Below are positions 55,956 to 64,000 of a stretch of DNA of 64,000 bases, one piece after another. Both the position numbers and the translations under genes were made by a program. This DNA is from Candidatus Eiseniibacteriota bacterium. Lineage in GTDB: Bacteria > Eisenbacteria > RBG-16-71-46 > JABDJR01. The notes beneath the pieces were generated by a model. It did no database searches and was not told the DNA's origin. It saw only the letters and a program-made list of their open reading frames with translations. Position 1 is the stretch's first letter, and each line of letters opens with the position of its first letter. Location: the NCBI GenBank assembly GCA_963783375.1, contig CAWANH010000028.1, positions 1,600,001-1,664,000 of the forward strand. The letters run 5' to 3'.

Positions 55956-58025
55956 TCAGGTTCCTCCGCGGCCCGGGGAGAACCGCAGTCCCAGGAGCAC
56001 CTCCCGGCCGGGGACCGCGTAGCCCCGGATGTCCTCGTACCGGGTGTCGAACAGGTTTCGCCCCTCCGCTTCCAGTCGCAGGTCGGCGGACGCCCGGTAC
56101 CGGAACCCGGCATGGATCAGGGCGTACCCGTCCGCCCACTTGGTATTGGCCGCGGTGAGGGGCACCCGGCCCACCGCCCGCACCCCCGAGGCCACGGCCC
56201 AGCGCCCCCGGGTCCAGGAGAGATCGGCGAAGGCGGTGCGGGCGGCGCGCCCCACCAGCCGGCGGTCTCCGGTGATCGGATCCCCGGTGGCGTCGGCGGC
56301 GTCGAGCAGGGTGAACGCGGCGTCGAGCCGGAGAGGAAGACCGAGCCCGCCCAGGTCGAGGGAGCCGTCTCCCTCCAGGCCGCGGATCCTCGCCTCGCCC
56401 ACGTTGTGCGGACGCCACACCCCGTCCGCCCCCGGAGTCCACTGGATGAGATCGGTGAGCCGGGAGTCGAACGCGGAAACCGAGAGCCGGGACGTGCGCA
56501 GCCGCGCGTCGAGACCCAGGTCGAGATCCCGGGCCCGCTCCGGACGGAGGTCGGGATTTCCCGCCGCGCTGGCCCGGGCCGGCCAGAAGAGATCGTCGAA
56601 GGTGGGCGGGCGAAACGCGTTTCCGAGTCCGGCGCGGGCGGCGAGAAAGGCCACGCTCCCGGGGTTGCCGATGAGCGCGCGGGAGATGCTCACCCGGCCC
56701 GAGGGATGGGGGGCGAACCCCTCCAGAGCGTCGAGGCGGATCGCCGCCGATGCTCCCCAGTCCCGCCACCGCTCTTCCGCGTAGAGCGCGGCGGCGGCGC
56801 GATCGCGGCCCACCCGTCCGTCGGTGGTGCTCCGGAGGCGGTCCCGGACGGCCTCGGTGCGGGCGATCACCGTGCCCCGTCCGAGAGCGCCGTGCCAGCT
56901 CGCCGAGGCGCGAAGCCGCCGGTTCCGATGGCGGTCGGCCACCGGCCCGAAGGGGTTCCGCGGGTCGGCGTAGTCCCGATCGAAGATCGACCGGGAGACG
57001 TCGAGATCGAAGCTCCCCGGTAGCGACGACGACTCCACCCCACGCGCGCCCAGGCTCAGCTCGGCATAGGTGTCGGTCCGGCCGGCGCCGGGGGTGGGGA
57101 AGGCGCGGCTCCCGGGCACGTCCCGCCGGTCGTTGCGTCGCTCCGCCGAGGCCTCCACCGCGGCGGCCCAGGGCGGGTGCCAGGCCAGCCGCGCCTGCGC
57201 GCCGATCCCGTCGGCGTGGCCCTCCCGGCTCTCCAGGCGGGGCGAGGCGGTCTCGACCCGGGCCACCCCGTCCGCCGTCCATCGGCTGCCCGACAGCCCG
57301 CCCGTCGCCCGGATGAGGGCGCGGTCGCCGTTCCCGGCCAGGACCCGAACCGAACTCTGCGGCGCGCGATCGGAGCGCCGGACCAGGTTCACCGCCCCGC
57401 CGAGGGCATCGGGCCCGTAGAGCGCTCCCATGGCTCCGCGGGCGACCTCGACGCGGTCGAGCCCCTCCACGTCGAGGGGCTCCAGATCCACGCCTCCCCC
57501 CTGGGCGGTGTTGATCGGGCGCCCGTCCACCAGCACCGCGGTGCGGTCGGAACCCAGCCCCCGGAAGGACACCGCCTGGCTCACCCCGTCCCCCTGGGTC
57601 AGCACCCGGAGACCGGCCACGTACTGAAGCGCGCGACCCAGGTCCGCGGGGTCGATTCGGTCGAGCCACGCCCGGTCGAGGACGGTTCGGGCGCCGGGCC
57701 GGAGGGGGAGGGGGGGAATTCGGGGCGCGGACTTTCTGAAGGGAGGGAGGGTGTAGGTGGGCAGCGCGGCGATCGAGCTGTCGTTCGCGGCGAGGGAGGC
57801 CGCAGCAGGAGCGGGGGAGGCCGCGGCAGGCGGGGAAGAAAACGTCGGCGCGGGAACGGATGCGGTCGAAGTCTTACTGGGAGTGGTTCTTTCGCCAGGC
57901 GAAAGTGAAAACTTCGGCTTGGATGTCAGCTCGGTCGCTCCCGCACCGACAGAACAAATGATGAGCCCGGCGAGCGCCAACGTCAAGGCGCTTCCGGCCG
58001 GCGCCCCGAAACGGTAGAAGGACAC
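55956..58025 (-). CDS. btuB: TonB-dependent receptor, vitamin B12 transporter
   Basis: Plug motifs SFRG, VLVDGRP, VEVARGAMGALYG; FRPPTFDDLFW, GNPDLRPE, NLFDTRYE, YAVPGRE; under a cobalamin riboswitch. Confidence 0.85.
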   Translation of the reverse strand: MSFYRFGAPAGSALTLALAGLIICSVGAGATELTSKPKFSLSPGERTTPSKTSTASVPAPTFSSPPAAASPAPAAASLAANDSSIAALPTYTLPPFRKSAPRIPPLPLRPGARTVLDRAWLDRIDPADLGRALQYVAGLRVLTQGDGVSQAVSFRGLGSDRTAVLVDGRPINTAQGGGVDLEPLDVEGLDRVEVARGAMGALYGPDALGGAVNLVRRSDRAPQSSVRVLAGNGDRALIRATGGLSGSRWTADGVARVETASPRLESREGHADGIGAQARLAWHPPWAAAVEASAERRNDRRDVPGSRAFPTPGAGRTDTYAELSLGARGVESSSLPGSFDLDVSRSIFDRDYADPRNPFGPVADRHRNRRLRASASWHGALGRGTVIARTEAVRDRLRSTTDGRVGRDRAAAALYAEERWRDWGASAAIRLDALEGFAPHPSGRVSISRALIGNPGSVAFLAARAGLGNAFRPPTFDDLFWPARASAAGNPDLRPERARDLDLGLDARLRTSRLSVSAFDSRLTDLIQWTPGADGVWRPHNVGEARIRGLEGDGSLDLGGLGLPLRLDAAFTLLDAADATGDPITGDRRLVGRAARTAFADLSWTRGRWAVASGVRAVGRVPLTAANTKWADGYALIHAGFRYRASADLRLEAEGRNLFDTRYEDIRGYAVPGREVLLGLRFSPGRGGT

Positions 58026-58190
58026 GGCAAGAGCCTCCCTTTCCACGCAAGGGTGGGTCTTCGAAGGGAGGAGAGGGGGGCTCGGGGCCCGGGACCGGCG
58101 AGGCGGGCAAGAAACAACCCGCCTCGAGGGAAATCGAAGGCGGGCTACGCCGCCGATCGCCCTCACCTCCTCGAAGGTCTCGATCGAGAG

Positions 58191-58387
58191 CGTCCACAGC
58201 CGGTCTCCTGACTCGCGGGTCATCCTCCGGTCGCCCCTTCCCGAGGGACCCGGTCCCTCAGTGGGTTTTCCCGCCGCTCTCCACCGCCTTTGGAGACGGT
58301 AACCGACAGCGGGACTGCGACCTTCGTCGCCGCTCACAGTGGCGGGTCCGTGCCGGATTCACACCGGCTTCCCGTACACTGCGGACG
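58191..58387 (-). ncRNA. Cobalamin (AdoCbl) riboswitch
   Basis: Minus strand GGGAAGCCGGTGTGAATCCGGCACGGACCCGCCACTGTGA...CCACTG...GGGAAGG...GAGTCAGGAGACCGGC (B12 box), closed by CGTCCGCAG/CTGTGGACG; upstream of btuB. Confidence 0.95.
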
Positions 58388-61366: not shown

Positions 61367-63754
61367 TCAGCCCGAGCGGGGCTTTTCGATCCCGAGTTTC
61401 TTGATCCGTCCGGTCAGGGTGGTGCGGCTCATGCGGAGGAGCCGGGCCGCGCCGGATGTGTTCCAATCGGAAGCCTCGAGGGCGTTGATGACCCGGGCCC
61501 GCTCGATCTCTTCCAGTTCCTCGGGGAGCGAACCCGATTCGGAGGAGCCGGAAAGACCGATGAAGTGCTCGGGTCGGAGGTCGGCTTCACTGGGAGCGAG
61601 GGCGGAGGCCCGTTCCATGGCCAGACGCAGTTCCCGGATGTTTCCGGGCCATGGCTGCCCCATGAGCCATTGTACGGTTTCGAAGCTCAGCTTCTGCTTC
61701 CGGCCATAGTTGTGATTGAGTCGCCCCAGGAAGAAGCGGGCAAGGGGAGCGATGTCGGACAACCGATCCCGCAATGGGGGCAGGTTGATTTCGAGGCCTC
61801 GAAGCCTGAAGTATAGGTCCTTTCTGAACTTGCCGTTCTGAACTCCCTTCTCCAGGTCTGCATTCGTGGCCGCGACGATCCGAACGTCGGCCTTCTCGTA
61901 GCGAGTGCCGCCGACCGGACGGAACTCGCCGGTCTCGATAACCCTGAGAAGTTTGGCCTGTGCGGATGACGTCATCTCCCCGATCTCATCCAGGAAGAGG
62001 GTCCCCTCATGGGCCTCCCTGAAGAGCCCGGGCTTGTCGAAAATCGCGCCGGTGAACGCCCCCCGGCGATGTCCGAAGAGTTCGCTCTCCATGATCTCGG
62101 CGGGGAGCGCCCCGCAGTTGATGGCCAGGAAGGGGCCGTCACTCCGGCCGCTCAAGGTATGGACGAGCCGGGCGAACAGCTCCTTGCCGGTGCCGCTCTG
62201 TCCTCGGATCAGCACGGGTACTCCGGAAGGAGAGATTTTGGAGATCCAGGACGACTGCTCTCTGAGCCGGGGTGACCGGGTTATGATGCCGTGCGCTTCC
62301 AGGTCGACCCGGGGGAGATCCTTGGAAATCGGGCTAAGAGGGAGATCCCCGCCGGCCGCCTCGCCGAGCGAATCATCGATCATGTCGGCCGGCGCATCGA
62401 CCGGATCATCGACTCCGAATCCTTCCTTCTCCCGCTTATTTCGCCAACGCTCGAGAAGCGGAAGGGCGCCGCAGCTCTCGGCGAGGAATTCCGTGCGAGC
62501 CCACCATTCGGATGCGTCCTTCGTCCTCCCGCTGCGACTCATCATGGTGGAAATCTCGTGGGAGGAAAGCAGGTACTCATAGCCGAATCCGAGCGTCCTT
62601 GCCTTTTCTGCATGCGCTAGGAGCCGCCCCGTCACATCATCCGTGTCCCCCTGATACCACGCGAGCAACGCGCCTATCCGGTCGAGAGCCAGAGTATCCT
62701 CGGGCTCACTGGCGGAAGAGGCGAAGGCGGTGGCAGCTTCAAGATGGAATTGAGCCTTGTCAAAATCACCGAAACCGATGTTGGCCTCGGCACTCCTGCG
62801 GTGGAGCTCGATTAGAAGATCCGAAGATCCTGACAACTCCTCGGCGCACTCGACGGCGGAGGCAAACGCGTCATTCGCGCCACCTTCATCGCCAAGCAAC
62901 ACCAGGGCGTCCGCGAGATATTCCAAAGCCAGGGCCCGTTCTCTCAGCAGCTGCAGTTCAATCGATTCGGCGAGCGCCTTCTTTGCATAAGACTCTGCTG
63001 CAATCCCATCCCCTTGCCGCAGGGAGACCATCGCGAGCCCAAGCGTTCCCCTGAGCGCGCGCTTTCGTGATCGGATCAGCTCGGACGCGCGAGTAGCGAA
63101 CTGATACGACTCCTTGGCGGTCAGGAACTCACCGCTTTCGATAGCCAATGCACCGAGGTTTATCGAGACCCCGGCAAGCATGGGGGCATCTTCCATCACG
63201 AGGCACAGGCCCCTGGCGCGTTCAAGTACTGCCCGGGCACTCCGTCTATCAGAGTCCAACCGCAGTGCAGCTGCAAGCGGCAGACTTGCTCGGACGACAT
63301 CGTGTGTGTTTGAGCCAGTGGATTGGTAGGTTGCCCGAGAGAGATCCAGGAGGCGTACCGCTCCCTGAGGATCACCCTCGGCCAGACGGCAGATTCCAAG
63401 GGCCAGCAAGCCCTCCGCTTCCATCTCCGGGCGAGCGGTCGAGGTGCCCGTCTTCTTGAGAAACTTCGCAATTCGAGCTGCACGCCCCACCCGGCCGGCA
63501 ATCAGATGGTGATTCCATGTACCGGAAAGCAATCGCATGTACTTACTTTGACTCTCCGTTGGCAACGATCTCCAGGTCCGAGCCGCTCGCTTTGAAGCAA
63601 GGCGTCTTCCCGAGTCCGCTTCCACTTCAAAAGCAATTCGCAAGAGTTCGGTCGCACGGGAAGGATCAAGATGATCCGTGCTCGGTGTCGAAGCTTCCGA
63701 GGTGCGGAGTGACGTCAGATGGTGGAGCAACTCACTTTCATTGTGTACAGGCAT
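61367..63754 (-). CDS. Sigma-54-dependent enhancer-binding protein with N-terminal TPR-like repeats and Fis-type HTH
   Basis: GQSGTGKE, ESELFGH, GAFTGA, LFLDEIGE, DLYFRL, WPGNIREL, AARLLRMSRTTL; N-terminal helical repeats (LALGICR, INLGAL, LEYLADA). Confidence 0.92.
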   Translation of the reverse strand: MPVHNESELLHHLTSLRTSEASTPSTDHLDPSRATELLRIAFEVEADSGRRLASKRAARTWRSLPTESQSKYMRLLSGTWNHHLIAGRVGRAARIAKFLKKTGTSTARPEMEAEGLLALGICRLAEGDPQGAVRLLDLSRATYQSTGSNTHDVVRASLPLAAALRLDSDRRSARAVLERARGLCLVMEDAPMLAGVSINLGALAIESGEFLTAKESYQFATRASELIRSRKRALRGTLGLAMVSLRQGDGIAAESYAKKALAESIELQLLRERALALEYLADALVLLGDEGGANDAFASAVECAEELSGSSDLLIELHRRSAEANIGFGDFDKAQFHLEAATAFASSASEPEDTLALDRIGALLAWYQGDTDDVTGRLLAHAEKARTLGFGYEYLLSSHEISTMMSRSGRTKDASEWWARTEFLAESCGALPLLERWRNKREKEGFGVDDPVDAPADMIDDSLGEAAGGDLPLSPISKDLPRVDLEAHGIITRSPRLREQSSWISKISPSGVPVLIRGQSGTGKELFARLVHTLSGRSDGPFLAINCGALPAEIMESELFGHRRGAFTGAIFDKPGLFREAHEGTLFLDEIGEMTSSAQAKLLRVIETGEFRPVGGTRYEKADVRIVAATNADLEKGVQNGKFRKDLYFRLRGLEINLPPLRDRLSDIAPLARFFLGRLNHNYGRKQKLSFETVQWLMGQPWPGNIRELRLAMERASALAPSEADLRPEHFIGLSGSSESGSLPEELEEIERARVINALEASDWNTSGAARLLRMSRTTLTGRIKKLGIEKPRSG

Positions 63755-63756
63755 TG

Positions 63757-63999
63757 TTACAACCACCTGAAGGTGATCAGCAGAAACATCTCGAGGCGGA
63801 GCGCCTGGCGACCCAGGGCGACGATGGGCCAATTGGCGTTGCCCAACATCGGAAAGTGAGTAGGGGAAGACCATTCCTCGGGTTTGCTGTCCCATCCCCC
63901 GGATGTTCCAGGCAGCTGCATGACCTGTGAGGAATTTGCCAGGGCGGCCATTGGGTTGACCGTTAGGGCAAGGAGGCTGAGCGAGAGGAGAAGAAGAAC
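63757..63999 (-). CDS. Small secreted peptide, 5'-truncated by the window edge
   Basis: Frame is open to the window end: VLLLLSLSLLALTVNPMAALA|NSSQVMQLPGTSGGWDSKPEEWSSP...FRWL*; TAA lies 2 nt before the bEBP ATG. Confidence 0.6.
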   Translation of the reverse strand, partial: VLLLLSLSLLALTVNPMAALANSSQVMQLPGTSGGWDSKPEEWSSPTHFPMLGNANWPIVALGRQALRLEMFLLITFRWL

Positions 64000-64000
64000 G

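Follow-up and report, generated by a model that had tools for sequence, protein, structure and literature searches.

The window analysed here is a 64,000-nucleotide stretch of genome G000 (G000:C28:1600001-1664000), from an uncultured bacterium whose same-genus and same-family relatives belong to Candidatus Eisenbacteria, not Bacillota. The right-hand end of the window carries a two-gene cassette that likely links a small protein with an export-type signal to sigma-54-dependent transcription. The first gene, p1, codes for a small protein with a predicted signal peptide, and the second codes for a bacterial enhancer-binding protein (bEBP) in which a tetratricopeptide-repeat (TPR) domain precedes the AAA+ and helix-turn-helix (HTH) domains. 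A paralogous peptide gene, p2, lies upstream of p1. The features are as follows, all on the minus strand, and those beyond the window edge are given as window-equivalent positions.

61367..63754, minus: TPR-AAA+-HTH sigma-54 enhancer-binding protein (P0001), 795 amino acids (aa), assigned from Pfam domains.
62420..63682, minus: TPR superhelix, residues 25-445 (predicted local distance difference test score, pLDDT, 93.9), with groove residues R165, N199, E206 (63137-63139), R235 and L238.
61787..62287, minus: sigma-54 activator AAA+ domain (Sigma54_activat, residues 490-656, E 3e-64), with GAFTGA at residues 565-570 (62045-62062).
61394..61516, minus: Fis-type HTH_8 DNA-binding domain, residues 747-787.
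63757..64000, minus: p1, small exported-type protein gene, 95 aa, completed by genome extension, with its start at equivalent 64044 (G000:C28:1664044), 44 nt past the window edge.
63937..64000, minus: signal peptide of p1 (residues 1-36), predicted to be of the Sec type, as far as it lies inside the window; it has a basic n-region past the edge, a hydrophobic helix and an A34-L-A36 site.
63862..63888, minus: conserved core S53-P61 (SKPEEWSSP), the predicted ligand, from conservation and covariation with the groove.
63763..63810, minus: C-terminal amphipathic/hydrophobic helix of p1 (residues 79-94), a likely membrane tether, from the AlphaFold helix and family tail statistics.
Equivalent 64715-64380, minus, past the window edge and upstream of p1: p2, second peptide gene, 111 aa, core SKPDWW, from its resemblance to p1.

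A first-pass annotation of this DNA had described p1 as an open reading frame (ORF) running off the window, with a signal-like segment, an ALA site, a core and a tail. Genome extension reveals a complete gene with all of these parts. A ribosome site (AAGGGGG) precedes the start codon, and the identical 95-aa product is already a called protein in NCBI/Logan/ENA. Export of this and the other small proteins was judged by heuristics of charge, hydrophobicity and AxA-type sites, together with an AlphaFold helix. The AlphaFold model of p1 has two helices, residues 6-28 and residues 79-94, joined by a coil of low confidence (predicted template-modelling score 0.33). Orthologues of p1 are present in G003, G004, G007, L188 and L190; a codon-position test on four orthologues is near saturation and only mildly informative. 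The Atlas has no match to p1 at or above 0.9, and no RNA holder is listed for this stretch of DNA. Neither p1 nor p2 matches an NCBIfam sorting-domain model (PEP-CTERM or similar), and no C-terminal sorting-domain match at E<=0.01 was found among 68 small proteins of the family.

The resemblance between p1 and p2 gives an alignment score of 58, whereas the maximum among 2000 shuffles is 53 and none reaches 58. Second peptide genes are present in G000, G003, L190 and L191. The p1 and p2 cores carry EEW and DWW, respectively, in G000, and this order is exchanged (DWW/EEW) in L190, where the upstream neighbour gene is the same. This exchange, seen at two loci only, suggests that the two peptides might act as an activator and an inhibitor, or that they participate in cross-talk.

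The stop codon of p1 is separated by 2 nt from the bEBP start at 63754 (TAA-CA-ATG), as annotated at first pass, and the spacing suggests that the two genes could be translationally coupled. The activator frame is open further upstream and would yield 842 aa if translated from the ATG at 63895. The start at 63754 is supported because three orthologues have a stop one or two codons ahead of the equivalent Met. The protein has additional TPR_12 and AAA lid matches, and its AAA+ domain has Walker A, Walker B and GAFTGA motifs. Together with the Fis-type HTH, these are the features of a sigma-54 bEBP. The listed NCBIfam models (25 of the 30 matched) all score under their cut-offs. Consistent with the initial description of a TPR sensor lacking REC, GAF and PAS domains, none of these three was matched at E<=0.1. 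The host was also correctly proposed to be diderm: profile searches of G000 found BamA above its cut-off, and rpoN, the gene for sigma-54.

The pairing of a small signal-type ORF with a TPR-bEBP recurs throughout the phylum. A profile of the TPR domain matches all 151 sampled genomes of the Eisenbacteria phylum. We examined the 110 top-scoring TPR-bEBP loci as a first set, with 496 further profile matches falling outside it, and drew 40 additional loci from weaker matches as a second set. The AAA+ domain is present at 110/110 first-set loci and the GAFTGA string at 86. An ORF of 70-170 aa with signal-type features lies directly upstream in 105 of the 109 first-set loci with room for one, and in 35 of the 36 second-set loci that have both an AAA+ domain and upstream DNA. 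The other four second-set loci comprise one without upstream DNA and three without AAA+ in the stretch (one cut short), none of which has a small ORF. Thus, the proposal that a conserved small ORF abuts homologous TPR-bEBPs is borne out. The core motif is present in 95 of the 105 first-set small ORFs (mean 5 and maximum 12 after shuffling), where the motif pattern and the core registers were set after inspection of the data.

As a background control, a lenient small-ORF match precedes 363 of 2713 genes in G000 (13%), and a match with the core motif precedes 11 (0.4%), one of which is a TPR-bEBP paralogue. This control used codon-based gene calls made for this analysis, which missed the window gene, and its upstream distance windows differ slightly from those of the family test. 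None of 20 non-TPR bEBPs in G000 is preceded by a core-motif small ORF. The genome has 27 AAA+ matches; reading of the longest N-terminal frames of 11 revealed three with a TPR-like region. A separate signal-type ORF precedes each of these three, with the cores SKPEEW, GDPDQY (twice) and ADPDTF, so the paralogues carry different cores as was anticipated. Another small signal-type ORF, with ADPDT, lies near a contig end (G000:C11:3828-4127, plus strand) on a contig that also has a weak TPR-like match, and might represent an extra pair.

Of 206 genomes, six yielded close orthologues of the window cassette, and all six belong to the same family as the window genome. The gap between the small ORF and the bEBP gene is -1 to 3 nt in the closest members of the window clade, and -16 to 154 nt (median about 46) family-wide. 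A related-locus search with one alignment (A2) recovered three genome loci and none in metagenomes. A profile search with representatives, like a longer homologue search, was dominated by generic TPR proteins and yielded no informative range beyond the phylum. The family tree, built with FastTree, has long branches. A sister clade (L031, L035, L036 and L111; family f15) has the core DGTP[FY]EEPE and no GAFTGA string, and the L035 activator ends without an obvious HTH, so the output of this clade may differ. Many cassettes of the 1040-aa type (L025, L027, L039, L054 and others) follow a gene with a C-terminal GRADII-type motif, which we take to resemble Ppx/GppA phosphatases. At L134:9200-10400 (G001), the peptide gene and the activator are both frameshifted while a different frame still encodes an intact core, GKPEEWS, which could reflect a decaying cassette or assembly indels.

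The small proteins are 90-168 aa long (median 110) and share an architecture rather than a sequence. The n-region has a net charge of at least +1 in 103 of 105 proteins, and in 102 it carries more positive charge than the residues that follow the hydrophobic segment, a pattern that predicts the N-terminus inside and the core outside. An [AVSTP]xA cleavage-type site is found in 94/105, a lipobox in two and a Tat-like motif in none. Tails have a median hydrophobic moment of 0.62 (0.32 for the mid-region) and a net charge of +3. They are mostly amphipathic and basic, reach transmembrane-level hydrophobicity in 5/105 proteins, and are comparatively hydrophobic in the window clade. The core is the sole conserved part. 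Among 97 nearest-neighbour pairs it is 75% identical, whereas the signal, linkers and tail are 34-40% identical (35% for the tail) and the receptors 66%. It lies 21-75 residues from the C-terminus and is repeated in tandem in 8 of 104 proteins. The usual core in the family is GDPD, and the window clade has KPD or KPE.

The N-terminal 451 aa of the window activator were modelled as a TPR superhelix, for which Foldseek ranks LGN-peptide complexes first. Its groove was defined by A-helix positions 2, 5, 6, 9, 12 and 13, which are given as ligand-binding positions in a TPR study (PMC1261162). Conserved polar residues occupy 15 of 42 groove positions and 17 of 213 other positions. Within this groove, N199, a possible counterpart of Asn275 of NprR, is kept in 96% of receptors.

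Covariation links the core to this groove. We calculated mutual information with average product correction over 255 TPR columns for 139 core-receptor pairs, in which kin are non-independent, and for 44 representatives at <50% identity. Cores were anchored by the motif because a 68-sequence peptide alignment (A4) placed the core of the window clade out of register. The best partners of core positions 1 to 5 are columns 206, 206, 238, 165 and 235, all of which line the groove, and the same columns are obtained with the representatives. The groove-minus-other signal is 0.027, compared with at most 0.010 in 25 shuffled pairings, and control windows in the tail and linker show no groove excess.

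The residue pairs are also chemically sensible: Asp or Glu with Lys/Arg206, Lys with Glu206, Asp with Lys165 and Thr with Leu165. In the first set, column 206 is Lys or Arg in 100/100 receptors whose cores have an acidic second residue (a grouping made after this column was noticed), Glu at four loci with Lys cores, and Phe at two loci with Val or Gly cores. Lys cores are paired with Glu206 or Asp206 at 6/6 loci of one clade, with exceptions elsewhere. A metagenome pattern scan yielded six stretches, four of them informative (one was unrelated and one had no upstream DNA). Of these, fetched after the rule was noticed, L190 pairs D206 with ASKPDWW and L188 pairs E206 with GKPWDW, whereas the non-Lys cores GNPEDF (L189) and GTPEDW (L191) accompany R206 and H206. 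The D206 of P0003 was known before its contig was fetched, and the expectation of a Lys core was unlogged. Given that only the core is conserved and that it covaries with the groove, the core likely binds the TPR domain directly. The covariation is good, if indirect, evidence of such contact, which we judge quite probable. As a separate observation, E278 is invariant in 106/106 first-set receptors, and the corresponding position is Arg in the ADPD type (L146-L148) and Phe in the GSPD type (L166, L174 and L183), in which the core start also differs. This residue is a candidate for another contact.

We therefore favor, with a probability of roughly 0.55, a model in which p1 is an exported pro-peptide whose internal core binds the TPR groove of the neighbouring activator and thereby switches sigma-54 transcription. 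Sec would export p1, signal peptidase would cut after A36, and the mature protein would remain periplasmic, anchored through its C-terminal helix. A core of 5-10 residues would then be released by a protease and returned to the cytoplasm by an oligopeptide ATP-binding cassette (ABC) importer. G000 has seven family-5 solute-binding-protein matches. The sigma-54 sites downstream of most family cassettes and the fold matches of the TPR domain to Rap, NprR and AimR also speak for the model. We consider it slightly better than an even bet that export, cleavage and re-import all occur. The core might lie antiparallel along the TPR A-helices, with K54 on E206 and E56 on R165. Because bEBP input domains are usually repressive, binding most likely would lift repression of AAA+ oligomerisation by the TPR domain, although the choice of activation over inhibition is a guess. 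The signal could leave the cell or cross the inner membrane only, in which case the cell would sense itself. Quorum sensing proper would need passage of the signal through the outer membrane.

Several observations weigh against this model. The best fold match of the TPR domain is domain III of MalT (Z 29.4), ahead of APPBP2 (27.6), the phage phi105 Rap protein (26.7), Pins/LGN (24.4), NprR (23.7), AimR (23.0) and PlcR (16.3). The sequence profiles matched are generic and MalT-like TPRs, with PF17874 (TPR_MalT) in 97/106 family members. Thus, the fold does not by itself imply a peptide ligand. In the second set, tallied by eye, 206 is Lys or Arg with 27 of 30 acidic cores; the other three lack it. 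Three GSPDET cores of one clade retain K206, and two second-set cores are unclear. When the 33 second-set pairs are analysed alone, groove columns make up only three of the seven top partners. Removal of the KPD clade abolishes the link between core position 2 and column 206, whereas 165, 238, 235 and 124 remain, and because the Lys/acid swap is confined to a single clade it represents few independent events. Furthermore, cores are kept across genera and are common to paralogues, unlike strain-specific pherotypes, so they are as compatible with a self-sensing envelope loop as with a quorum signal. In the cassette neighbourhood analysed, no gene was recognised as encoding a protease or an importer, and neither SbmA/BacA-type nor ABC_membrane_2 importers were found in the 97%-complete G000 genome. 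Autoinduction would be expected to place a sigma-54 site before the peptide gene, but only 1 of 105 loci has one there in the sense orientation (two antisense), and we have rejected autoinduction as a family rule, with one paralogue type as an exception.

The main alternative, to which we assign a distinctly smaller chance, is that the pair monitors export. The core would bind the TPR domain only in the unexported precursor, such that slowed Sec export causes accumulation and switches the activator with no re-import. Like the pro-peptide model, this explains direct covariation between the core and the groove, and it fits both the conserved, non-kin-specific cores and the lack of recognised protease and importer genes nearby. 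It would also fit co-transcription from a sigma-70-like promoter, a candidate for which is located at equivalent 64166-64138, about 120 nt before p1 (one site, where 0.8 are expected by chance). A similar site is found at 4 of 5 clade loci with a pattern that was set after inspection. However, a single export gauge would not require one genome to carry multiple paralogous cassettes whose cores differ, nor would it call for the tandem core repeats or for a second peptide gene whose core is not that of the first.

It seems unlikely that p1 is a membrane-tethered anti-activator, in the manner of PspF control, that remains in the inner membrane without being cleaved, exposes its core to the cytoplasm and holds the bEBP there until stress releases it. 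Direct binding is consistent with the covariation, and p1 does have two terminal helices flanking a disordered core, with tails that can be quite hydrophobic in the window clade. However, the charge pattern described above places the core outside in nearly all family members, most proteins have an AxA-type site, and few tails are hydrophobic enough to span a membrane. We find it similarly improbable that p1 is merely a co-transcribed secreted product and that the TPR domain senses some other ligand, such as a small molecule. MalT domain III, which senses a small molecule, provides a precedent in both fold and profile, but groove covariation that is specific to the core and absent from the tail and linker controls would go unexplained, as would the Lys/acid pairing in the newly fetched loci. 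Finally, a ribosome-arrest leader of the SecM/VemP type, which would couple the export of p1 to bEBP translation, fits an exported-type ORF immediately upstream at the tight spacing of the closest clade members, but we consider it very improbable given the variable family spacing, the unconserved tail, the distance of the core from the C-terminus, the position of p2 away from the activator gene, and the covariation, which it leaves unexplained.

The pro-peptide model is best compared with the RRNPP systems, to which the first-pass annotation had likened this cassette. Two accounts define RRNPP(A) systems by an adjacent propeptide of 10-100 aa with a Sec signal (PMC10075063), a receptor of 250-500 aa whose TPR domain may be accompanied by an N-terminal HTH or 3-helix bundle, a mature peptide that is usually C-terminal, and a host among Bacillota or their mobile elements (PMC10075063, PMC9765709). 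The window cassette shares the two-gene arrangement of Rap-Phr, AimR-AimP and PlcR-PapR, in which a Sec-type propeptide adjoins a cytoplasmic TPR protein. The receptor has a predicted superhelix of the peptide-binding type with a conserved Asn and charged residues lining its groove, and p1, with a signal predicted by heuristics, is 95 aa, although many of its relatives exceed 100 aa. In contrast, the receptor is a 795-aa protein with C-terminal AAA+ and HTH_8 domains and a sigma-54 output, and the family belongs to a diderm phylum in which the TPR profile matches all sampled genomes, outside Bacillota and their mobile elements. RRNPP proteins are absent from the best 60 of 216 PDB sequence matches, RNPP_C is not one of the 25 most frequent among the 33 Pfam families that match the 106 members, and the RRNPP fold scores are high but under that of MalT. 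The likeness holds as an analogy, whereas size, output domain and host argue against membership, and the sequence searches revealed no specific homology.

The closest functional parallel might be NprR-NprX of the Bacillus cereus group. One report describes an active heptapeptide, SKPDIVG, that is internal to the NprX propeptide and whose conserved Asp is bound by Arg126 of NprR (PMC3763537). Shared elements thus include an adjacent propeptide, an internal core, and the pairing of a peptide Asp with a basic receptor residue. SKPDIVG also resembles the SKP[DE]xW core of the window clade, but the likeness is limited to a handful of letters within a single derived clade, GDPD being typical of the family, and may be convergence. 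The NprR superhelix aligns to the window TPR domain over 341 residues (root-mean-square deviation 5.0, 11% identity). NprR has an N-terminal HTH, whereas the window protein has its AAA+ and Fis HTH domains for sigma-54 at the C-terminus, and the propeptides here are about 90-170 aa, end in a helix and occur in a diderm host.

MalT itself, a STAND ATPase, has a LuxR HTH and acts on sigma-70. Its domain III is similar to the window TPR domain over 340 aligned residues (root-mean-square deviation 3.4), but we know of no cognate propeptide gene for MalT, whereas the window family pairs its TPR sensor with a propeptide gene and with AAA+ and Fis HTH domains that act through sigma-54. Likewise, NtrC, NifA, PspF and RtcR share the AAA+ domain with GAFTGA and the Fis HTH but differ in input, for which the window family uses a TPR domain of 420 aa accompanied by a small gene of its own. 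Known inputs to sigma-54 activators are phosphorylation, small molecules and anti-activators. No description of this cassette was found in the literature searched, which did not extend to supplementary candidate tables (such as those of RRNPP_detector) or to most subscription journals.

A bolder version of the pro-peptide model, which we offer tentatively and hold to be somewhat less probable than its converse, is that the whole phylum uses true peptide-pheromone circuits wired into sigma-54, RRNPP-like yet separately arisen in double-membrane bacteria. These would be read by a residue code (core position 2 with column 206, 3 with 238, 4 with 165 and 5 with 235) whose charges are inverted in the window clade, often with a second peptide gene. 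Judging from sequence comparisons, the contributions of the window locus are the residue-level code, the clade with inverted charges and the presence of two peptide genes. Intracellular peptide-TPR signalling has been described for Bacillota (PMC10075063, PMC9765709). If true, the existence of sigma-54 activators with their own exported-peptide input throughout an uncultured diderm phylum would extend both this field and that of sigma-54 activation. It would also pose the question of how a Sec-exported core returns to a cytoplasmic receptor. Because the covariation names residue pairs, binding is testable on the purified domain even though the organism is uncultured, and matched peptide-receptor pairs could serve as orthogonal peptide-inducible sigma-54 switches.

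Candidate targets were sought among sigma-54 (-24/-12) promoters. A site occurs downstream of the cassette, mostly at 200-400 nt, in 73 of 97 family loci in the sense orientation (six antisense); the ORFs that follow encode no consistent protein. The window clade lacks an adjacent site, and the window copy has none of at least 9 bits within the surrounding 20 kb, suggesting that its target is likely in trans. G000 has 36 candidate sigma-54 promoters genome-wide. The window cassette is flanked by a convergent hybrid kinase gene and, further upstream, by a divergent gene for a Big_1 surface protein. The arrangement on the Big_1 side is syntenic in four genomes, but this gene shows no strong sigma-54 site, and no adjacent target was found for the window copy. 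The GC content of the cassette is 56-66%, compared with 69% for the contig.

The other cassettes of G000 show different promoter arrangements. In the ADPDTF cassette (G000:C29:1322478, minus strand; L146, L147 and L148), a sigma-54 site precedes the peptide gene by about 60-70 nt and is kept in G003, G004 and G007. This pair is itself likely driven by sigma-54, which would make it either part of a cascade linking cassettes or an autoinduction loop. A GDPDQY-type cassette (G000:C28:1470379-1474150) has a TPR-GAF-AAA+ activator, the GAF domain being documented in its orthologue L101. Its sigma-54 site, at G000:C28:1474131, precedes an ORF of 488 aa.

Upstream of p2 in G000 (L001:9959-14007, minus strand, past the window edge) are two genes that match no Pfam family and code for an 836-aa lipoprotein-like protein and a protein of about 510 aa. 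Neither was matched in the neighbourhoods of G001, G003 and G004 among the matches listed, and the end of the gene for the 510-aa protein is also found upstream of p2 in L190. Lastly, a gene for a TonB-dependent receptor (window 55956-58337, minus strand) is syntenic with the cassette in several relatives.

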